Of a stretch of DNA of 12,846 bases, positions 4,132 to 12,846 are shown piece by piece. Location of the stretch: the NCBI GenBank assembly GCA_037147375.1, contig JBAWVI010000018.1, positions 1 to 12,846 on the forward strand. Direction: 5' to 3'. The position numbers were made by a program, and so were the translations under genes. The DNA is from an archaeon. GTDB taxonomy: Archaea > Iainarchaeota > Iainarchaeia > Iainarchaeales > CSSED10-239. The notes below the pieces were generated by a model. It was not told where the DNA came from and ran no database searches. It worked only from the letters and a program-made list of their open reading frames with translations. The number at the start of each line of letters is the position of its first letter. The first letter of the stretch is position 1.

Positions 4132-4680
4132 TTATTTAAAATAATCTATTCTACTTTTTTGTCTATATGATGCTCTAGTTACTTCTGCTTTTATATTTTC
4201 AAGAAACTTAGCTAGTTCTCCTAAATTTTTTGAGCCTTCTCCTTTAGCATCTAGTGTTCTCTTAATTTCTCTGACTAAGCTACTTGTATATTCTTTTTCT
4301 ATCTTTTGAAAATAAGTAGCATTATGTACTTTTGAATTTTGGATTATATTATTTATTTCTTTATTTAGTTCTGTAATTCTTTTTAAGTGTGTTCCTTTAA
4401 ATCTATCAAGAGGAATTCTAATTCCAAGTTCGTTTATTAATCGTTGTATAAGTTCTTCTCTTTTTCCTAAATTTGCTTCAAAAATTTCACCAGCAATTGC
4501 GTATCTCGTCTTATTATTCTCTAACATCTTTCTTTCCTTTATTTTTTCTGAAAGCTTATCTTTTAAGTCATATTTAATTGCAAGCGATGCTTTCTTAGAT
4601 TCTTTATTTAGGGTAGCTTTTTCTTTTTGCAATCTTTCAAGTAATTGCATTTTTGGTTTATAATTTGGTTTTCCTGGCAT
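4132..4680 (-). CDS. Hypothetical Lys/Glu-rich helical protein, paralog family member P1
   Basis: This is a long ORF with no competing frame. A perfect GGAGG sits 8 nt upstream of the ATG at 4680 (minus strand reads ttGGAGGaattaattATG). The ORF-track start at 4695 is the TTG that overlaps this SD element. P1 shares the N-terminal motif (..LLERLQKEK) and the central motif YFQKIEKEYTSSL (4276-4314) with the ORFs at 4707-5225 and 7302-7835. Confidence 0.7.
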   Translation of the reverse strand: MPGKPNYKPKMQLLERLQKEKATLNKESKKASLAIKYDLKDKLSEKIKERKMLENNKTRYAIAGEIFEANLGKREELIQRLINELGIRIPLDRFKGTHLKRITELNKEINNIIQNSKVHNATYFQKIEKEYTSSLVREIKRTLDAKGEGSKNLGELAKFLENIKAEVTRASYRQKSRIDYFK

Positions 4681-4706
4681 AATTAATTCCTCCAATATTT
4701 TAATTA

Positions 4707-5225
4707 TTATTTTTTCCTATTTCTTTGTCTTTCAATAGCCTTAATCAATTCTTGTTTAAATTTAAGTGTATATTCTTTTAATTCAAGTATTTTTTTATTT
4801 ACTTCCTTAATATCTGCAAGAGATGAATAATCAAATTCATACATTAAATTATTGACCTTTGGTCTTAATTCCTTTGTAAACTCTTCATATACTTTTTTAA
4901 AGTAAGGTCCCTCTGTATTTTCTATTGTTTCATTTATTTTTTGGATAAATCCTTTTATTGCAATTAATTCAATTCTACTTTGGTTCTTTTCAGGTAATCT
5001 TTTTAGAAGTTGATCAATCCACTCTATTTTTATGATTTGTTCGTGTTGTATTGTTCTTAATCTATGTTTTTCTTTATAAGTTCTTAATTTTTGTTTTTCT
5101 TCTAATTTTTTATTATTTTCAACTAATTTTTTTTTATTTTGTGTTTTAATTAAAAAAGAATTATTACTATTCAGTTTAGATTCTTTTTCTAATCTTGATA
5201 TTATTGGTATTTTTTTAAGTTGCAT
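4707..5225 (-). CDS. Hypothetical Lys/Glu-rich helical protein, paralog family member P2
   Basis: This ORF lies 26 nt upstream of P1 on the same strand and is probably the first gene of a P2-P1 pair. Its N-terminus is MQLKKIPIISRLEKESK and its central motif is YFKKVYEEFTKEL (4866-4904). It has no SD element, and a TATA-like tract is centred about 26 nt upstream of the ATG, which is compatible with a leaderless mRNA. Confidence 0.68.
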   Translation of the reverse strand: MQLKKIPIISRLEKESKLNSNNSFLIKTQNKKKLVENNKKLEEKQKLRTYKEKHRLRTIQHEQIIKIEWIDQLLKRLPEKNQSRIELIAIKGFIQKINETIENTEGPYFKKVYEEFTKELRPKVNNLMYEFDYSSLADIKEVNKKILELKEYTLKFKQELIKAIERQRNRKK

Positions 5226-5242
5226 AAAAGATTCTAATTTAA

Positions 5243-5258
5243 TTTATATATATTATAT
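5243..5258 (-). promoter_or_regulatory. Putative archaeal TATA box for the P2-P1 transcription unit
   Basis: The minus strand reads ATATAATATATATAAA, located 18-33 nt upstream of the P2 ATG at 5225. This spacing fits an archaeal TATA box positioned near -26 for a leaderless transcript. The surrounding sequence is AT-rich, so specificity is low. Confidence 0.35.
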
Positions 5259-5445
5259 CTATTAACAAATATCTTCTTTAAAGATATATTTTTAAATAGA
5301 TTTACTCAAATATTAGATCTTAGACAATTATGATTTACAACAGCTTGTTTTTTTTGTTGTTCTTATTAATTCTATTTTTAAATCTTTACTCATACTATTA
5401 TATAACTAAATTAAATAATGTGCATGAGGTTTTAAGTGATTAAAT

Positions 5446-6042
5446 ATGGTACCTGAATTATTATCTTTATTTGTTTTATTCTTTGTAATCTTAGATCCGT
5501 TACAAAGTTTCGCATTCTTCTTTGTTAGAACAAATGCTTTAACTAAAAAAGAAAGAGTAAATATCGCTCTTCTTGCAACAGGAATTGCAATAGTTATATT
5601 ATATGCATTTCTTTTCTTTGGAAAAGGAGTACTTGATTTATTTAATACAAACATAGATAGTTTTAGAATAGCTGGTGGTATCTTACTTGCACTTTTAGGA
5701 ATTACAATGTGTGGTTATTTAAAAAGTAATGATGATGATAAGGATAATGCAAAGGATTCACACACAACAATAGCAACTGTTATTGCAACCCCTCTTCTTT
5801 CTGGACCAGCAGCAATAACTGCAACAATCATCTCGGTTGTTGATCATGGAAGATTATTAACTGGAATTGCTATAGGTCTTGTATTACTTTTAACTTTTGG
5901 ATTATTACTTTTATCTGTTGTGTTTAATAAAATACTTAATAAAAGTAAGGTTGCAATCAAGGTAATGACCACAATCTTAGGATTAATTACTCTTGCATGG
6001 GGTATTGATTTCATATTAACTGGACTTCACTTTGTTGTATAA
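5446..6042 (+). CDS. MarC family (UPF0056) integral membrane protein, copy 1
   Basis: The protein is about 198 aa and multi-pass hydrophobic. MarC-family signatures are present: FRIAGGILLALLG, IATVIATPLLSGPAAITATIISV and the C-terminal ILGLITLAWGIDFILTG. For comparison, E. coli MarC has LRIAGGLIVAFIG and PLAMPSTAGPGTIAMIISS. GTGAT lies 5 nt upstream of the ATG. Confidence 0.9.
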   Translation: MVPELLSLFVLFFVILDPLQSFAFFFVRTNALTKKERVNIALLATGIAIVILYAFLFFGKGVLDLFNTNIDSFRIAGGILLALLGITMCGYLKSNDDDKDNAKDSHTTIATVIATPLLSGPAAITATIISVVDHGRLLTGIAIGLVLLLTFGLLLLSVVFNKILNKSKVAIKVMTTILGLITLAWGIDFILTGLHFVV

Positions 6043-6081
6043 AGTGAATGGTTCCATTTCTTTAATTTTAAAGGATTGATT

Positions 6082-6681
6082 ATGGGTATAGACTTTATAA
6101 ATTTATTAGTTTTATTTTTTGTAATAATCGATCCAATCAAAAGTTTTATTTATTTCTTTGTTAAAACAAACACTTTAACAAAACTTGAAAGAAGAAAGAT
6201 TGCATTTCTTTCAATAGGTATTGCTATTGCTCTTCTTTATGTTTTTCTTTTCTTTGGAGCACAGGTTCTTGAAGTTCTAAACATAAACATAAATGTATTT
6301 AGAATTGCAGGAGGTATTCTTTTAGGTTTATCTGGAGCTGCAATGTGTGGAGTTTACCTTTCAAAACCAACAACGAAAGAAGAAGCAAAAGAAGACGAAA
6401 ATCTAACAACCGCAATTGTGATTGCAACTCCTCTTCTAACAGGCCCTGCAGCAATAACTACAGTAATTATCTCTGTTGTTGATAATGGTTTACTTATGAC
6501 TGGTCTTGCAACAGCACTAATATTTGCATTAACTTTAGTTCTTTTCTTATCATCGACTTTCTTTACAAAAATATTTAATAGAAGTAAAGTAACCTTGAGA
6601 GTAATATCTACAATCCTTGGGCTTATAACCTTTGCAAATGGAATTAAGTTTATAATGGTTGGGCTTCACGTGATTGTATAA
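6082..6681 (+). CDS. MarC family (UPF0056) integral membrane protein, copy 2
   Basis: It carries the same signatures: FRIAGGILLGLSG, AIVIATPLLTGPAAITTVIISVVD and ILGLITFANGIKFIMVG. The ORF-track start at 6076 is TTG within the SD-like AAGGATTGAT. I prefer the ATG at 6082. Confidence 0.9.
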   Translation: MGIDFINLLVLFFVIIDPIKSFIYFFVKTNTLTKLERRKIAFLSIGIAIALLYVFLFFGAQVLEVLNININVFRIAGGILLGLSGAAMCGVYLSKPTTKEEAKEDENLTTAIVIATPLLTGPAAITTVIISVVDNGLLMTGLATALIFALTLVLFLSSTFFTKIFNRSKVTLRVISTILGLITFANGIKFIMVGLHVIV

Positions 6682-6699
6682 TTTAAATTTTGATTTTTA

Positions 6700-7290
6700 A
6701 TGTTTCTTACTTACTTTTTGCTTGTTCCTTTATTTTTTGTAATAATTGATCCTATAAGATCATTTGTTTATTTTTTTCTACATACAAATAAATTAAATAA
6801 ATTAGAAAGAAAGAAGATTGGATTTCTTGCAATTATTATTGCTAGTTTAATTTTAATTATATTTGTTATTCTTGGTGAATCTTTTCTTGAATTAATACAC
6901 ATAAACATAAACGTTTTCAGAATTGCAGGAGGAATAATGGTTTCATTATTGGGTTTAAATATAATTGGAATTGTAAATAGACAAGCAAGTCAATATAAGT
7001 TAAATGATGATGTATCAATTGCAACTGTAATTGCAAGTCCTCTTATTGCTGGTCCAGCAGCAATAACAACAACAATAATTTCTGTTGTAGATTATGGAAA
7101 AATAGTAACATTAATCTCTATTCTTACTGTAATAATTATTGTTCTAATATTATTTTTAATTTCAATAAGATTTAGTAAGATATTTGATAACAGTATAATT
7201 TTATTTAAAATAAGTTCAATAATTTTAGGATTAATTACTTTTTCAAATGGAATAAAGTTTATAATGATTGGGCTTCATGTAATAACTTAA
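6700..7290 (+). CDS. MarC family (UPF0056) integral membrane protein, copy 3
   Basis: It carries the same signatures: FRIAGGIMVSLLG, IATVIASPLIAGPAAITTTIISVVD and ILGLITFSNGIKFIMIG. It is closest to copy 2, and the similarity is visible at the nucleotide level (for example ...ataaacataaa.gt.tt.agaattgcaggagg...). Confidence 0.9.
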   Translation: MFLTYFLLVPLFFVIIDPIRSFVYFFLHTNKLNKLERKKIGFLAIIIASLILIIFVILGESFLELIHININVFRIAGGIMVSLLGLNIIGIVNRQASQYKLNDDVSIATVIASPLIAGPAAITTTIISVVDYGKIVTLISILTVIIIVLILFLISIRFSKIFDNSIILFKISSIILGLITFSNGIKFIMIGLHVIT

Positions 7291-7301: not shown

Positions 7302-7835
7302 TTATTCTATTTTAATATGCCGTGCATTTATTTTTAATGCGTCAATCAGACTCTTTTCAAATTCAGTATTAAATGTATCAATTAAATTCATAGTTTCATG
7401 AAATTTTTTTGTTTCAAATCCATTTTTTATAATTTTAATTAATTCAGAAGTATATGCAGCCTGTATTTTTTGAGTGTATTTTTGAGGGACGCTTCCTCTA
7501 TATCCAGTAAGGAAGTGTAAATTATTACTCTCCATATCATCAAAGTGAATATACATTTCCTTAATTTTGTCTGATATTGCATTTTTTCTATCATAATCGA
7601 TTTTTATCTTCTGCTCTTCCATCGCTCTAACCATCTCTCTAAAAAAATGGTCACGCCATTTTAATGCAATCTTTTTGTTATTGTACAGTTTATCTTCTAC
7701 TGTGTTCCCTTTATATTTTAGCTTTTCTTTAATAAATTCGCTAGCAACCTTTTCAGTTATATATCTTTTGGTAGTGTTTGCAGATTTTTTTTCTAATTTT
7801 AGTCTTTCAATAATTGGTAATTTTTTTGCAGGCAT
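7302..7835 (-). CDS. Hypothetical Lys/Glu-rich helical protein, paralog family member P3
   Basis: The N-terminus MPAKKLPIIERLKLEKK and the central motif YTQKIQAAYTSEL (7440-7478) match P1 and P2. GGAGAG lies 6 nt upstream of the ATG. A palindromic TTTATAAA at 7890-7897 is a possible TATA box of its own. The gene lies 67 nt downstream of the porB stop on the same strand. Confidence 0.7.
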   Translation of the reverse strand: MPAKKLPIIERLKLEKKSANTTKRYITEKVASEFIKEKLKYKGNTVEDKLYNNKKIALKWRDHFFREMVRAMEEQKIKIDYDRKNAISDKIKEMYIHFDDMESNNLHFLTGYRGSVPQKYTQKIQAAYTSELIKIIKNGFETKKFHETMNLIDTFNTEFEKSLIDALKINARHIKIE

Positions 7836-7902: not shown

Positions 7903-9948
7903 TTATTTAAGATTGCTAATTTTTTCTTTCAAGAGAAGTTCTTTCCATTCTTTATCAACATATTCTTGTATTTTCTTAATCTCTGCTTTATTTTTAAGAA
8001 CTGCATTAAACTTAGTTTGGGTTTTTAAAAAGTTTTCAACTGGTTCTCTTTTTTCTGGTTTATAATTAATCTTATATTTCCCATCTTCATATTCATATAA
8101 AGGATACGAATTTGTTTCAATTGCAAGCTTACTAATAGATATTGTTTGATCACTTGGTGCTTTCATGTTTGTTGGGCAAGCAGCAAATGCAATTAATACA
8201 CTTGGTCCTTTCTTTTCAAATGCTTTCTTAACTTTATCGTGCATATCTCCAAGATCAGCAGGATTAATTGTAGCAACATAAGGGATATTGTGAGCAATAG
8301 CAATCTTTGCTAAATCCTTTTGAAATTCTTTCTTACCATCTACAATTTTTCCAGATGGAGTTGTTGATGTTGATGCCCCCATTGGAGTTGCAGACGATCT
8401 TTGGTTACCAGTGTTATGAACAACTATACCATCAGCAATGAAGTTATGTTCTCCTTCAACTCTTAAATCAAGAGTTGGTTCTTTTCCAACGAACTTAATA
8501 CTTTTAATAATTTCAACATCAAAGTTCTTATTTCCAATTAATAATTTTTGATATTTATATTGAGATGGATATTTATCTATATTCCAAGAATCTTTCTCAC
8601 TAAAGCAAATACTATAATATTCACTATCTCTTAATAATTCTCTATACACTACTTTAGTTCCTTTAAGCTTCTTTTGAGTTGTAATCTTTCCAACTCTATA
8701 ATCTAATGTTTGTAATAATAATCTTAATTTTATAATTAGATCTTTACTTGCAGATACATATCTACAACTATCCTTAATTTTTTTATAAATATATCCATCA
8801 GATAACATTAATCCTTTAATGAATGCTTTCTTTTCTTTATCTGGAATTGTAAATATCCATGAAGGCAATGTTTTTGTTTTTGCACCTTTATTGAATCCAA
8901 GAGAATTAATGAAATTTGCAAGATTGATTGAATTTGAATAAACATAAACTTTATCTGTTCTTATAGCTTTATGTTTAAATGTGTTTTGTAATATTCTAAT
9001 TAATTCTTTTCTACCTTCTGTTTTTTCAGGAAGAGCAAACCCAACCTCTCCTTTTTGTTCTCTAATCCAACCATCTCCAACCCAAAGACCTAAAAATAAC
9101 ATTAAATCATCATTTGATTTGCTTGGTATTGAGATTTCATTTAGATTATTTGCTTTGTTTTTCCCTTTTTGTGCTAATTTTATTTTGTTAAATGAATATG
9201 ATTTATCTCCTTCTAATTTTTTAAGGGTTATAACTTGATCTCCTTTCTTCAAATCTTCGAGTGTTTTCCAGATTAATTCATTTTCTTTTCCTCTTCCATT
9301 TCTGTTTACAATTAAGAAAGGATGGTTTGTTGTTGCTTTGATATTGTGATGGAATGTTTCAATTTCATAAACTGGTTTTGTTCCATTATCAAATACTCCG
9401 CTACATTTCTTTAATACAAGTTTATGTGTCTTTTGATCAAATGCATAAACTATTTCTCCAGTTTTAACTTCTGTTATTTTCTTTAATCCATCTTTAGTAA
9501 ATATAAGCGAATCTTTACTTAAGCAATTCATATATCCTTCATTATCATAACAAATATAAACGAAATTATGTCCCCTTTCAAGAGCTCCAGATAATGATTG
9601 AAGTCCAATATCAAACGTTCCTCCATCTCCACCAAAAGCCATAAACTTAATATTTTCTTTAATTTTTCCTTTCTTCTTTTGTGCAAGGTATGCAGTTTCT
9701 ACTCCTGAAATAGTTGCAGCAGCATTAGCAAATAATGAATGTATCCAAGGTACGTTCCAAGAAGTATATGGATAAATTGTTGTTGTAACTTCAGCGCAAG
9801 AGGTTGCACTTGCAACTAAAACATGGTCATCAGTTGCTGCAAGAGCTGTTCTTAAGATCACAGTTATTGGACATCCTGGACAAGTCCTATGACCAGAAAC
9901 AATTTTTTTCTTTTCATGTATTTTTAAAGCTAATTCTTTTGCATTCAT
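7903..9948 (-). CDS. porB: Pyruvate/2-oxoacid:ferredoxin oxidoreductase beta subunit (ThDP-binding), interrupted by an in-frame intein
   Basis: The N-extein is 141 aa. It contains GHRTCPGCP, ATSCAEV and the ThDP motif GDGGTFDIGLQSLSGALERGHNFVYICYDNEGYMN. The C-extein is 169 aa and contains TGNQRSSATPMGASTSTTPSG and AACPTN. Together the exteins total 310 aa, the normal size for PorB. The substrate (pyruvate or another 2-oxoacid) cannot be decided from sequence alone. Confidence 0.94.
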   Translation of the reverse strand: MNAKELALKIHEKKKIVSGHRTCPGCPITVILRTALAATDDHVLVASATSCAEVTTTIYPYTSWNVPWIHSLFANAAATISGVETAYLAQKKKGKIKENIKFMAFGGDGGTFDIGLQSLSGALERGHNFVYICYDNEGYMNCLSKDSLIFTKDGLKKITEVKTGEIVYAFDQKTHKLVLKKCSGVFDNGTKPVYEIETFHHNIKATTNHPFLIVNRNGRGKENELIWKTLEDLKKGDQVITLKKLEGDKSYSFNKIKLAQKGKNKANNLNEISIPSKSNDDLMLFLGLWVGDGWIREQKGEVGFALPEKTEGRKELIRILQNTFKHKAIRTDKVYVYSNSINLANFINSLGFNKGAKTKTLPSWIFTIPDKEKKAFIKGLMLSDGYIYKKIKDSCRYVSASKDLIIKLRLLLQTLDYRVGKITTQKKLKGTKVVYRELLRDSEYYSICFSEKDSWNIDKYPSQYKYQKLLIGNKNFDVEIIKSIKFVGKEPTLDLRVEGEHNFIADGIVVHNTGNQRSSATPMGASTSTTPSGKIVDGKKEFQKDLAKIAIAHNIPYVATINPADLGDMHDKVKKAFEKKGPSVLIAFAACPTNMKAPSDQTISISKLAIETNSYPLYEYEDGKYKINYKPEKREPVENFLKTQTKFNAVLKNKAEIKKIQEYVDKEWKELLLKEKISNLK
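8413..9525 (-). mobile_element. Intein (371 aa) with a LAGLIDADG homing-endonuclease domain inside porB
   Basis: The first residue is Cys (codon 9523-9525), within CLSKDSLIF (block A). Block B is TTNH. LAGLIDADG motif 1 is LFLGLWVGDGW (9067-9099) and motif 2 is FIKGLMLSDGY (8791-8823). Block F is LDLRVEGEHNFIA. The terminal sequence GIVVHN ends at 8413 and is followed by the Thr+1 codon at 8410-8412. I checked these coordinates codon by codon against the sequence. Confidence 0.9.
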
Positions 9949-9964
9949 AATTTTTCACAATAGT

Positions 9965-10786
9965 TTATTTTTTCATTTTTGAATATGATTTTTTCATTTC
10001 ATTTACAAAATGTAATACTAATTGATTGTAATGAGATCCAAGCATATTTGTTTCATCATCATGTGGTGCTGATTCCCATTCCCCTACCTTATCATCATAA
10101 CTAATTTTTCTTTTTTGTTCAACTGATGGGTTAAATAAGATTGCATTAAGTTTTTCAAGTTCTTTTTCATCTAATCTTGGTAAATAATCTTTTTTTTTAA
10201 ATGATTGAAACGAAGTATCATTACTCCAATTAAAACCAATTCTTTTAACATCTTCTCCATCTTTTTCTAGGATGCCCTTTATTGATTTTCTTTCAGGTAA
10301 ATGAGAATCATCTTTTGCATATCCTGTAAGGCTTGCAGGCATTCTTGGAGCCCTAGATGAGTCTACAAATACAAACAAAGGATTATCAAGTTTTTGTCTA
10401 TAATTTTGCATCATTTTTTTTAGTTTATTTTGCGCATCTAAAACTTCAAATATACTATTAGTAGATGGATATTCAATTAGTGTGCTTATTATTTTTTTAT
10501 TATTTTCAATCGAACTTGTGTATATTACTCCTGTCCTTTTAATTCCAACTACAATAATTGGTCTTTTTGTTTGTTTGTTAAGTCTAGATACAAATGATTC
10601 AGTAATGTATGCTTCTCTTGCTAAAAATTTTGCATTAATAACTTCATAAGGACTAAATTTAAATTTATATCCTGGCATTCTATAAAATAAATGTTTTTGT
10701 GGAACTTCTTTAATTATCTCTACATTCCTTTCTTTTTTAGGAACTTCCTTTTTAGAAAATAATTTTTTAATAATCTTTAGTGGCAT
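9965..10786 (-). CDS. Hypothetical 273-aa protein embedded in the por operon between porA and porB
   Basis: This is a long ORF with no competing frame. It starts 3 nt after the porA stop, with AGGA 6 nt upstream of its ATG, and it ends 16 nt before the porB ATG. It contains no cysteine. I recognise no family motif. Its N-terminus is Lys-rich (MPLKIIKKLFSKKEVPKKERN). Confidence 0.72.
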   Translation of the reverse strand: MPLKIIKKLFSKKEVPKKERNVEIIKEVPQKHLFYRMPGYKFKFSPYEVINAKFLAREAYITESFVSRLNKQTKRPIIVVGIKRTGVIYTSSIENNKKIISTLIEYPSTNSIFEVLDAQNKLKKMMQNYRQKLDNPLFVFVDSSRAPRMPASLTGYAKDDSHLPERKSIKGILEKDGEDVKRIGFNWSNDTSFQSFKKKDYLPRLDEKELEKLNAILFNPSVEQKRKISYDDKVGEWESAPHDDETNMLGSHYNQLVLHFVNEMKKSYSKMKK

Positions 10787-10789
10787 ATC

Positions 10790-11947
10790 TTATCCTTTAA
10801 GTCCAATATATCTATTCTTTGGTGCTTTTCCAGCTGAAACATCAATTATTAATTTTTCAATATCCTTTTCATAAATATCTCTTCCACCAAGTCCAAATAC
10901 ATAACTATAAACTTCTGCATTTATTTTATTTCTTGCAAGAGTAATCATTATGTCTTTGTATACTGGAGGATAAGATCCTGGTCCTTCACTTCTTTCAAGA
11001 ACAATAATCTTCTTTGCTTTCTTTAAAGCTTGCGCATAATCATCATATAAGAAAGGTCTATAAAGAATAGGTCTTAGTAATCCTACATTTCTTTTTTCTT
11101 TCCTAAGTTTATCAATAACATCTTTTGTGGCTTCAGCAGTTGATGATAAAACAATAATTACAATTTCGGAGTTATTTGCAAAATAATCTTCATAAATATT
11201 AATTTTTTTATTAAATAATTTATTAAATTCAATAGATATTTTTGAATAGTTTGATTTAACTTCAGCAAAAGCATTAAACATGTTTACTCTTATTTCAAAA
11301 TAAGTATCTGGAAGAACAAGAGAACCAATTGATATCGGTTTCTTTGTGTCTAAGAGATTATATTCTGGTTTGTATTCTTTAATAAATTCTTTTACTTTTT
11401 TATTATCAAAAACCTCAACTCCAGTTACGTTGTGGCTTGTAATAAATCCATCTTGGCAAACCATAATTGGTAAGTTTACTGATTCTGCAAGTCTTAAGGA
11501 GAAAAGAGTCATTTCATAAGCTTCTTGTGCATTCTCACAATAAACTTGCATCCATCCTTGATCAAGACAAGACATAGAATCAGAATGATCACAATGTATG
11601 TTAATTGGAGCAGAGATTGCTCTATTTACTATTGGCATCAAGATAGGTAATCTAAATCCAGATGCTACACTTAAAACTTCATACATGTAAAGCAAGCCCT
11701 GAGATGAAGTTGCAGTTACTGCTCTAACTCCACAAGCCTGTGCTCCAACAACAGCAGAGAGAGCAGAATGTTCAGATTCAACTCTAATTATTTCTGTGTC
11801 TACTTCTCCATTAGCTTCATATCTTGCAAATGCTTCAATAATTGGAGTTTGAGGTGTGATCGGGTACATTGCCATAACTTCAGGATTAATTTGTTTTAAA
11901 GCAAAGGCAACTGCCTCTCCACCAGATAATGCAATTTTTTTATTCAT
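10790..11947 (-). CDS. porA: Pyruvate/2-oxoacid:ferredoxin oxidoreductase alpha subunit
   Basis: The N-terminus LSGGEAVAFALKQINPEVMAMYPITPQTPIIE is typical of PorA. Also present are ESEHSALSAVVGAQACGVRAVTATSSQGL and VCQDGFITSH. GAGGA lies 7 nt upstream of the ATG and overlaps the end of porD. Confidence 0.95.
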   Translation of the reverse strand: MNKKIALSGGEAVAFALKQINPEVMAMYPITPQTPIIEAFARYEANGEVDTEIIRVESEHSALSAVVGAQACGVRAVTATSSQGLLYMYEVLSVASGFRLPILMPIVNRAISAPINIHCDHSDSMSCLDQGWMQVYCENAQEAYEMTLFSLRLAESVNLPIMVCQDGFITSHNVTGVEVFDNKKVKEFIKEYKPEYNLLDTKKPISIGSLVLPDTYFEIRVNMFNAFAEVKSNYSKISIEFNKLFNKKINIYEDYFANNSEIVIIVLSSTAEATKDVIDKLRKEKRNVGLLRPILYRPFLYDDYAQALKKAKKIIVLERSEGPGSYPPVYKDIMITLARNKINAEVYSYVFGLGGRDIYEKDIEKLIIDVSAGKAPKNRYIGLKG

Positions 11948-11950
11948 AAT

Positions 11951-12238
11951 TTATTCCTCAACCATCTTTATGCACTTAACAGGACACACCTCTGCACATA
12001 TCCCACAACCTTTACAATAATCTAAATCAGTTTTTGCTCTTTTTATTTGTCCCTTCTTAACTTCTGCTAAGATGCAGTTTTCTGGACAGGAATTATAGCA
12101 CATCATACACTGGATACATTTCTTTGAATCCCATTCAGGTTTCTTGTATCTCCAATTTCCTGTCTTGCTGTTTATGGATGTTCCTCCAGGAAGAACTCCA
12201 CCAAGCATGTGCTTATTTTTAATTTTATCTTGCTTCAT
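11951..12238 (-). CDS. porD: Pyruvate/2-oxoacid:ferredoxin oxidoreductase delta subunit (2x[4Fe-4S] ferredoxin)
   Basis: Two CxxCxxCxxxCP motifs are present: CIQCMMCYNSCP and CKGCGICAEVCP. The 95-aa size and the position between porG and porA fit the delta subunit. Confidence 0.94.
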   Translation of the reverse strand: MKQDKIKNKHMLGGVLPGGTSINSKTGNWRYKKPEWDSKKCIQCMMCYNSCPENCILAEVKKGQIKRAKTDLDYCKGCGICAEVCPVKCIKMVEE

Positions 12239-12245
12239 ATTAATC

Positions 12246-12797
12246 TCATTTTTTAAAGTAATTATATCCTGCCTTAAGGCATTCTATGTTTGGTTTTACA
12301 AGTTGTTCTTTTCCTTTCTTTTTAAACTCATCTTCAATTGTTTTATTTACAATATCAAGCTTAATATCAAAAAGCTTACAGAGAACACCAAGAAGAACCA
12401 TGTTTGGATTATTTTCTTTTGTTTTTTCAAGAGATATTTTAGTTCCAGAAATAAAATATGCTAGTTTATTCTTAATTTCTTTCTTTATCTCTTGTTTATC
12501 TGTGTTAACAATATAAATTGCATTATTATAATCTTTTGTTCCTGGAAGAGTTGTAAGAAGATTTGCATCAATAACTATAACACAATCAGGATTTATTATT
12601 GGTTCATGTATTCTTATCTTATGTTTTGAAATTCTAACAAATGCTTTAACTGGTGCTCCTCTTCTTTCAGGCCCATATTCAGGAAAAGCAAGAACATTAT
12701 ATCCTGCAAAAAGAAGAGATTCTCCTAAGATTTGAGCAAGCGTTTTAGCACCAAGTCCACCACGACCATAAATAATTACATTTAGATTATCTTTCAT
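12246..12797 (-). CDS. porG: Pyruvate/2-oxoacid:ferredoxin oxidoreductase gamma subunit
   Basis: IIYGRGGLGAKTLAQILGESLLFAGYNVLAFPEYGPERRGAPVKAFVRIS is typical of the gamma subunit. The ORF-track start at 12806 is the GTG of an SD-like GTGAT that sits 4 nt upstream of the ATG at 12797 (MKDNL...), so I prefer 12797. Confidence 0.93.
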   Translation of the reverse strand: MKDNLNVIIYGRGGLGAKTLAQILGESLLFAGYNVLAFPEYGPERRGAPVKAFVRISKHKIRIHEPIINPDCVIVIDANLLTTLPGTKDYNNAIYIVNTDKQEIKKEIKNKLAYFISGTKISLEKTKENNPNMVLLGVLCKLFDIKLDIVNKTIEDEFKKKGKEQLVKPNIECLKAGYNYFKK

Positions 12798-12846
12798 AAA
12801 TATCACTGTATATATAATATATAGGATTAGTAAATAGATGTTTTTT

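Follow-up and report, generated by a model that had tools for sequence, protein, structure and literature searches.

The 12,846-nucleotide (nt) contig JBAWVI010000018.1, from an archaeon of the Iainarchaeales (assembly GCA_037147375.1) and referred to here over its full length as the window, carries a por operon on its minus strand. The operon includes porB, the gene for the beta subunit of a 2-oxoacid:ferredoxin oxidoreductase. The porB open reading frame (ORF) encodes 681 amino acids (aa), is free of internal stops, and contains an in-frame insert of 371 aa which is very probably an intact class-1 intein with a LAGLIDADG homing endonuclease. The insert starts with CLSKDSLIF at residue 142 of the ORF and ends with ...VVHN at residue 512. 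Translation reproduced exactly the boundaries proposed in an earlier sequence-only reading of this DNA, and located every motif which that reading had listed, i.e., Cys1, TTNH, two acidic LAGLIDADG motifs, block F, and the terminal HN followed by Thr+1. The acidic catalytic residues of the two LAGLIDADG helices are D151 (LGLWVGDGW) and D243 (GLMLSDGY) in intein numbering. The positions of the por genes, the exteins and the intein elements are given in Table 1.

Table 1. Features of the porB locus and of the intein in the window (positions are those of the window)
Feature	Position	Strand	Basis and remarks
porB ORF, 681 aa	7903..9948	-	ORF translation
porB N-extein, residues 1-141	9526..9948	-	C23, C26, C51, GDG (D108), N136; ends ...YICYDNEGYMN; TPP_enzyme_C match on residues 58-142
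Complete class-1 intein, 371 aa, ORF residues 142-512	8413..9525	-	Cys1...His-Asn, then Thr+1; profiles, structure model, absence from syntenic L001
Hint N-lobe, intein residues 1-105	9211..9525	-	blocks A and B
Block A, CLSKDSLIF	9499..9525	-	translation
Cys1 codon	9523..9525	-	translation
Block B, TTNH (T65-T-N-H68, intein numbering)	9322..9333	-	translation
Linker, intein residues 106-135	9121..9210	-	least conserved, lowest-confidence segment
LAGLIDADG homing-endonuclease domain, intein residues 136-312	8590..9120	-	LAGLIDADG_3, dN/dS, fold match to TliVMA and PI-PkoII
LAGLIDADG motif 1, LMLFLGLWVGDGW	9067..9105	-	acidic residue present
LAGLIDADG motif 2, FIKGLMLSDGY	8791..8823	-	acidic residue present
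Hint C-lobe, intein residues 313-371	8413..8589	-	blocks F and G
Blocks F and G, LDLRVEGEHNFIADGIVVHN	8413..8472	-	translation
Terminal His-Asn (His370, Asn371)	8413..8418	-	translation
Thr+1 codon	8410..8412	-	translation
porB C-extein, residues 513-681 and stop codon	7903..8412	-	begins TGNQRSSATP; fourth Fe-S ligand AACP (C220, spliced numbering)
273-aa ORF between porA and porB	9965..10786	-	without Pfam match
Rest of the four-subunit por operon	10790..12806	-	Pfam POR, Fer4 families, POR_N, PFOR_II
porA	10790..11947	-	Pfam
porD	11951..12238	-	Pfam
porG	12246..12806	-	Pfam

Hint and LAGLIDADG domains were both recovered by profile searches, in which the insert scored above the curated cut-offs of four models: Pfam Intein_splicing (67.3 bits; cut-off 35.8), Pfam LAGLIDADG_3 (41.1 bits; cut-off 22.5), NCBIfam TIGR01445 intein_Nterm (29.1 bits; cut-off 24.5), and NCBIfam TIGR01443 intein_Cterm (25.2 bits; cut-off 15.6). 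An AlphaFold (AF2) model of the intein, built from 21 family members, has a pLDDT (predicted local distance difference test) of 89.8 and a pTM (predicted template modelling score) of 0.89. The top matches of this model in the PDB are the endonuclease-bearing intein TliVMA (PDB: 7qsu; E value 2e-22; template modelling (TM) score 0.74) and PhoVMA, with a range of E values from 2e-22 to 1e-18 and of TM scores from 0.65 to 0.74, and these are followed by PI-PkoII and PI-SceI. The structural match to mini-inteins and to the hedgehog Hint domain is confined to the splicing lobes of the model. In secondary structure, model residues 139–310 form two helix/strand repeats, which together make up a double alpha-beta-beta-alpha-beta-beta-alpha core. 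Among sequences of solved structure, the two splicing lobes are closest to the DnaB mini-inteins, and the middle part to PI-PkoII and the VMA inteins. Thus, the insert combines the features that define a class-1 intein, namely a host that is colinear on its removal, Cys1 with a block B TxxH, His-Asn before Thr+1, and a Hint fold, with those of a monomeric, double-motif LAGLIDADG enzyme, namely two helices with an acidic residue in a repeated core fold.

The overall GC content of the window is 29%. The GC content of the intein is slightly lower, at 0.266 as opposed to 0.31–0.34. Because GC at third codon positions is the same in the intein and in the exteins, base composition gives no sign of a recent foreign origin.

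Removal of the insert yields a spliced PorB of 310 aa, which aligns without a gap across the junction with the PFOR (pyruvate:ferredoxin oxidoreductase) beta chain (PDB: 9bt4_C; E value 1e-70; ...vcvDNEaYMNTGiQRSS...) and with the beta chain of oxalate oxidoreductase (OOR; PDB: 5c4i_C; E value 3e-69). Residues 8–142 of the ORF match positions 6–134 of the NCBIfam PorB model PRK11865, and the closely related model PRK11864 picks up again at residue 511, corresponding to model position 133. The profile matches continue at the same model position after the insert, and therefore the host is colinear without it. Intein-less PorB proteins are colinear through this segment as well, and an empty site exists in a syntenic contig (see below), so that the restoration of the PorB signature proposed in the sequence-only reading was borne out. 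Assignment of the host to PorB is further based on the GDG...N motif, the four Cys residues of the proximal [4Fe-4S] cluster, and the partner genes porG, porD and porA. The PorB equivalog model gives 330 bits with the host protein, below its whole-protein cut-off of 405 bits, and a 2-ketoisovalerate (VorB-type) model matches too. Specificity for pyruvate is accordingly putative.

The intein is inserted between Asn141 and Thr in the loop DNExYMN/TGxQRS (the slash marks the insertion point), which lines the thiamine diphosphate (ThDP) pocket. In the 2-oxoacid:ferredoxin oxidoreductase (OFOR) of S. tokodaii, Mg2+ is bound by Gly-Asp-Gly (89–91) and Asn118, and CxGC takes part in the ligation of the proximal cluster (PMC5020499). 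The Mg-binding Asn of the GDG...N motif in the window is N136, the Asn of the DNE triplet, which lies 28 residues after D108, the same spacing as between Asp90 and Asn118 of the S. tokodaii enzyme. The intein follows N141, five residues past N136. The earlier placement of the insertion at the last residue of the GDG...N motif thus needs to be shifted, while its placement at the catalytic centre stands. A docking paper on the PFOR of D. africanus describes a cofactor pocket of Gly962-Asp963-Gly964, Thr991, Val993, Tyr994, Ser995, Asn996, Thr997, and Cys840 (PMC12691758). By alignment offset, N141 and Thr+1 are equivalent to Asn996 and Thr997, both of which line this pocket, and for this reason the insertion is assigned to the active-site pocket. 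Of the extein cysteines (C23, C26, C51, C133, and C220 in spliced numbering), C23, C26, C51, and C220 align by position with C24, C27, C52, and C225 of the OOR beta chain. The first three lie in the N-extein and C220 lies in the C-extein, in agreement with the three-plus-one division of Fe-S ligands noted before. Since both the Fe-S ligands and the ThDP loop are divided between the exteins, PFOR activity should depend on splicing.

In some PorB proteins, an additional insert of about 343 aa interrupts the ThDP motif elsewhere, at GDGG/C...N/S(F/Y)DIG. It is found in P0016 (1023 aa), L020, and L087, and possibly in L015. This insert has a LAGLIDADG_3 match of 46 bits and no Pfam Hint match, and its terminal Asn is preceded by Met in place of His. 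Probably it represents a divergent second intein allele of PorB. In the window this second site is empty (GGDGG-TFDIG).

Alleles without the intein were found among close relatives. A search with the spliced exteins returned intein-less PorB proteins at 95, 92, 89, and 86% identity. The 95%-identical relative is encoded on L001, a 90-kb contig whose aminotransferase, Topo VI, MarC, and por genes are in synteny with those of the window. At the DNA level, positions 9527..9952 of the window align with 7997..8422 of L001, and positions 7916..8415 with 8421..8920, at 85.6% identity, and L001 is without precisely the 1113 nt of the intein. The empty-site junction of L001 reads GATAACGAAGGTTATATGAAC/ACTGGAAATCAAAGGTCATCT. 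Over 72 nt, the restored junction of the window has 9 differences from that of L001 and encodes the same peptide. A still closer pair consists of P0012, which has the intein, and P0131, which has none: their exteins are 99.3% identical in amino acids and 97.0% in nucleotides, with a clean presence/absence of 1116 nt. In a neighbour-joining tree of the exteins, intein-bearing and intein-less alleles are interleaved, and four sister pairs have opposite states.

A search with the full-length protein yielded intein-bearing PorB proteins in at least 120 clusters (90% identity level), nearly all of them with 667–702 aa. In a scan of one genome per GTDB species, 191 species carry an intein at the PorB site, the closest being archaeal metagenome-assembled genomes (72–73% identity), followed by Candidatus Iainarchaeum and Candidatus Forterrea multitransposorum (65%), a ranking from which an Iainarchaeota-like DPANN archaeon is the probable source of the window. 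Further archaeal hosts are, by label, Woese-, Nano-, Micr-, and Aenigmatarchaeota, Bathyarchaeia, Hadesarchaea, and Methanophagales. The bacterial labels comprise Omnitrophota (many), Aerophobetes, Parcubacteria/Patescibacteria, Cloacimonadota, Planctomycetia, and Dependentiae. In an Omnitrophota single-cell genome (L030), RecR (265 bits, above cut-off) and a DnaX fragment precede the por operon; because both are on the same contig, this host is truly bacterial. The sequence-only reading had called the host protein unusual for an intein. Surveys do stress replication proteins, which is in keeping with that statement, but the numbers above show that the combination is not rare, and IMG even labels such genes automatically as 'pyruvate/2-oxoacid:ferredoxin oxidoreductase beta subunit/intein/homing endonuclease'.

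Conservation within the family is strong. Among 121 homologues, with intein lengths of 365–372 aa, N-1, C1, the Thr and His of block B, the terminal His-Asn, T+1, G+2, and Q+4 are invariant, and the two LAGLIDADG Asp residues are retained in 116 and 118, respectively. In all, 78 of the 371 intein columns are invariant; C41 is among them, and C307 is near-invariant. When 1.84 billion representative sequences were searched, the PorB inteins stood apart as a group with identities of at least 55%, and after them came inteins of SufB and of T4-like portal proteins with about 32–36% identity over the full 371 aa.

Comparison of the intein with its host provides evidence on its mobility. The mean pairwise identity is 64% for the intein vs. 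59% for the host extein, and among the GTDB loci, within and between domains, the values are 61–66% and 52–57%, respectively. The incongruence runs in both directions: a Cloacimonadota allele and an archaeal-labelled allele are 81% identical in the intein and 47.5% in the extein, and one Omnitrophota allele shares 85% of the extein and 58% of the intein with its relatives. The nearest neighbours by intein and by extein coincide in only 20 of 68 cases. Median ratios of nonsynonymous to synonymous substitution rates (dN/dS), calculated by the Nei-Gojobori method from 49 pairs with 80–98% identity (28–38 informative pairs per region), are 0.088 for the endonuclease domain, 0.065 and 0.056 for the splicing lobes, and 0.136 for the linker. 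A less common variant with the insertion at the same site, P0247 (607 aa), has the motifs IASGQ and NTNGV, in which both catalytic Asp residues are lost, and deletions of 18 and 32 aa, while C1, TxNH, and the HN/T junction are kept. It is a decaying-endonuclease stage of the same intein allele. Across 78 loci, the flanks of the insertion are near-fixed at first and second codon positions, GAyAAyGArGsnTAyATGAAy/ACnGGnnTnCArCG, and this conserved flank is a plausible candidate for an endonuclease target common to Archaea and Bacteria.

In the homing cycle known from PI-SceI and the VMA inteins, empty sites, intact inteins, and inteins with a decayed endonuclease are the expected stages. The occurrence of all three in PorB, together with the intein/extein incongruence, points to repeated horizontal invasion. 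The invariant splicing residues, the purifying selection, the incongruence, and the degenerate variant fit an ongoing homing cycle, and the intein may be a currently active homing element which crosses between Archaea and Bacteria through a near-identical target.

Splicing competence, endonuclease activity and target site are predicted here from sequence, and the invariant residues suggest that splicing would follow the class-1 pathway. Upon translation of the 681-aa precursor, Cys1 would undergo an N-S acyl shift, helped by the Thr and His of block B, and Thr+1 would attack the resulting thioester in a transesterification. Cyclisation of Asn371, helped by His370, followed by an O-N shift, would then release a normal PorB of 310 aa and a free 371-aa intein of about 43 kDa. 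Only the spliced PorB would unite the four Fe-S cysteines and the ThDP/Mg loop. The freed intein, or its endonuclease domain, would probably cut intein-less porB at the conserved target, and repair of the cut would copy the intein into the empty gene. Homing of this type would account for a patchy presence among near-identical alleles as well as for a spread over distant lineages.

Several observations weigh against the interpretation as an active intein and homing element. The linker in the window reads GKNKAN where the family nearly always has GDYKVN. Splicing and DNA cleavage are both deduced from conserved residues and an evolutionary pattern. Many of the taxon labels belong to metagenome bins and some may be wrong, the neighbouring genes having been checked for one bacterial host. 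The homologues were chosen by their similarity to the query, which inflates the apparent conservation of the intein. Finally, the presence/absence polymorphism could reflect precise loss rather than gain. An intein which splices and is immobile would be a vertically inherited passenger, its endonuclease domain being kept for structural reasons or for a benefit to the host. The uniform length of the homologues and the retention of the intein in many lineages would agree with this. However, similarities of intein and extein clash in both directions, and intein-bearing and intein-less alleles are sisters at 94–99% extein identity. Moreover, the catalytic Asp residues are conserved with a dN/dS of 0.09 in the endonuclease domain, and P0247 lost both Asp residues and gained deletions, as expected if it is the endonuclease function that selection maintains. 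We therefore consider an immobile passenger unlikely, although it is the likeliest of the alternatives.

An intein at this position might also have been co-opted by its host. Conditional, redox-sensitive splicing has been proposed for some other inteins, and a redox- or cofactor-sensitive switch could hold back the maturation of PFOR, an oxygen-sensitive enzyme, until reducing conditions prevail. As the intein separates the Fe-S ligands and interrupts the ThDP pocket, splicing gates activity; conservation is unusually strong for a selfish element; and the Cys1 nucleophile is a thiol, accompanied by the conserved C41 and C307. On the other hand, positions +1 and -1 to -3 lack the Cys needed for a known type of disulfide trap, the invariant C41 is nothing special among so many invariant columns, and close relatives thrive without the intein, all of which makes such a switch quite improbable. 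In its boldest form, the proposal is that the intein is kept as a redox- or cofactor-conditional gate on PFOR maturation in DPANN archaea and ultrasmall bacteria, the modest version being the active cross-domain homing considered above. We put the bold form forward as speculation with a low chance of being correct; if true, it could explain why the intein is more conserved than an essential host enzyme and why it is so widely retained. It is scarcely credible that the locus is instead a porB pseudogene disrupted by a free-standing LAGLIDADG endonuclease gene (542 aa, from Met140), or an assembly chimera. Such a gene is suggested by the NCBI protein of the source contig (P0002), whose annotation reads 'LAGLIDADG family homing endonuclease' and whose sequence starts with MNCLSKD... 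But a single frame of 681 aa runs from the PorB N-terminus to the PorB C-terminus, the 542-aa call itself takes in the whole C-extein, and the endonuclease domain lies between Hint blocks A and B on one side and F and G on the other. In addition, more than 100 independent assemblies from different samples have the same architecture with invariant junction residues. An assembly artefact or a pseudogene is ruled out by the continuous frame and the family-wide architecture. The preferred reading is thus that of an intact intein with its homing endonuclease.

Read from left to right along the plus strand, the window has a class-V aminotransferase (cysteine-desulfurase-like) gene, then those for topoisomerase VI B and A, a pair of small ORFs that match no Pfam family, three tandem MarC genes, one more small ORF, and the por operon on the minus strand. 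Scans for tRNA genes and with Rfam found no RNA genes in the window. The 273-aa ORF between porA and porB is missing from the syntenic L001, while L004 and L007 have homologues with 40–44% identity in the corresponding place, L007 with two tandem paralogues. Only 7 clusters of this protein were found in 5.8 billion proteins, each hypothetical, and its sole profile match is a weak one to a ribosome-hibernation-factor family (E value 7e-4). A link of this ORF with the intein was considered and rejected: its homologue adjoins an intein-less porB in L007, and the intein-bearing L006 and L008 are without it. In the por operons of relatives, unrelated genes are repeatedly lodged between the subunit genes (L001 6258..6836; L007 940..1677; L090 2268..2996). 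The insertions include an HD-domain gene (porD/porA), a methyltransferase (porG/porD), and a 242-aa ORF (porA/porB). In this lineage, the operon appears to be especially prone to acquiring inserted genes.

The three tandem genes for MarC-family membrane proteins (5446..7290, plus strand; 198, 201, and 196 aa) correspond to a single MarC gene at the equivalent place in L001, L004, and L007, which indicates a local triplication in the window. The three copies have 67–84% DNA identity to the single copy of L001. The array is flanked by the three small ORFs (4132..4695, 4707..5225, and 7302..7835, all on the minus strand), whose lysine-rich products are probably helical and without Pfam matches. 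Their N-termini look alike (MP.KK.PII.RL..EK...), with no mutual BLASTP match at an E value of 1e-3. The first of them (4132..4695) has a homologue with 54% identity in L001. The lowest GC content of the window, 0.19, is found in the region 5001..5500.

Inteins in metabolic enzymes are not unprecedented, SufB being a host of the nearest relatives and M. jannaschii having inteins in PEP synthase and other metabolic enzymes, and the PorB element is of a thoroughly known kind. A full-text literature search, whose coverage leaves out many subscription journals and InBase, found no description of an intein in PorB or PFOR. Inteins are mentioned only in DnaB/DnaE/RNR in a paper on Thiomargarita and only in RNR in a paper on the Obsidian Pool nanoarchaeon, and pyruvate is unmentioned in the main text of the intein survey by Novikova (2016). 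The host protein and the site are thus undescribed in the literature as far as found, though IMG annotates them automatically. What the present analysis adds is the wide, patchy and cross-domain distribution of the intein, its strong conservation, and the risk of mis-annotation for PorB. The NCBI call in the window (8413..9531 region) starts at Met140, omits the PorB N-extein, and does not name the gene as PorB; as a result, metabolic reconstructions of DPANN and candidate phyla can miss or mislabel the interconversion of pyruvate and acetyl-CoA. With PorB, a ThDP/Fe-S enzyme of central carbon and energy metabolism joins the known intein hosts, most of which are replication and ATPase proteins. 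Every stage of the homing cycle can be seen in uncultivated lineages, and the same allele in Bacteria and Archaea could serve as a marker of gene flow in anoxic communities. The family also provides a new LAGLIDADG enzyme with a highly conserved putative target, as well as a compact Cys1/Thr+1 splicing domain.

Among known systems, the VMA inteins of T. litoralis and P. horikoshii (PDB: 7qsu, 7qss, 7qst) and PI-PkoII (PDB: 2cw7) have the same architecture of a Hint domain with an inserted LAGLIDADG domain. They are the best structural matches (TM scores 0.65–0.74; E values 1e-17 to 1e-22) and weak sequence matches, and like the PorB intein they lie in a host loop that binds a cofactor or nucleotide. 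They differ in their host proteins, with 15–21% identity over the structural alignment, whereas the PorB intein has Thr+1 and a ThDP/Fe-S host. The DnaB mini-inteins (Npu and Ssp; PDB: 4o1r, 1mi8) are the nearest sequence matches for the splicing lobes, with alignment of blocks A/B and F/G (...DLTVPGxHNFVANxIIVHN vs. ...DLRVEGEHNFIADGIVVHN in the PorB intein), but they reside in a replicative helicase, and the forms that were crystallised have no endonuclease domain. For the whole intein, the nearest relatives outside PorB are the SufB and T4-like portal (gp20) inteins from metagenomes. SufB is likewise Fe-S-related, but both differ in host gene and insertion site, and a gap in identity separates the PorB family (at least 55%) from all others (about 36% or less). 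PI-SceI from yeast VMA1 is bifunctional: after splicing, it uses a LAGLIDADG-mediated double-strand break to home into the empty allele. It differs in being eukaryotic, in having an extra DNA-recognition region, and in having only 13–15% identity to the PorB intein. It nevertheless shares the fold, and the course of its homing cycle, from invasion through fixation and decay to loss, agrees with that of the PorB intein.

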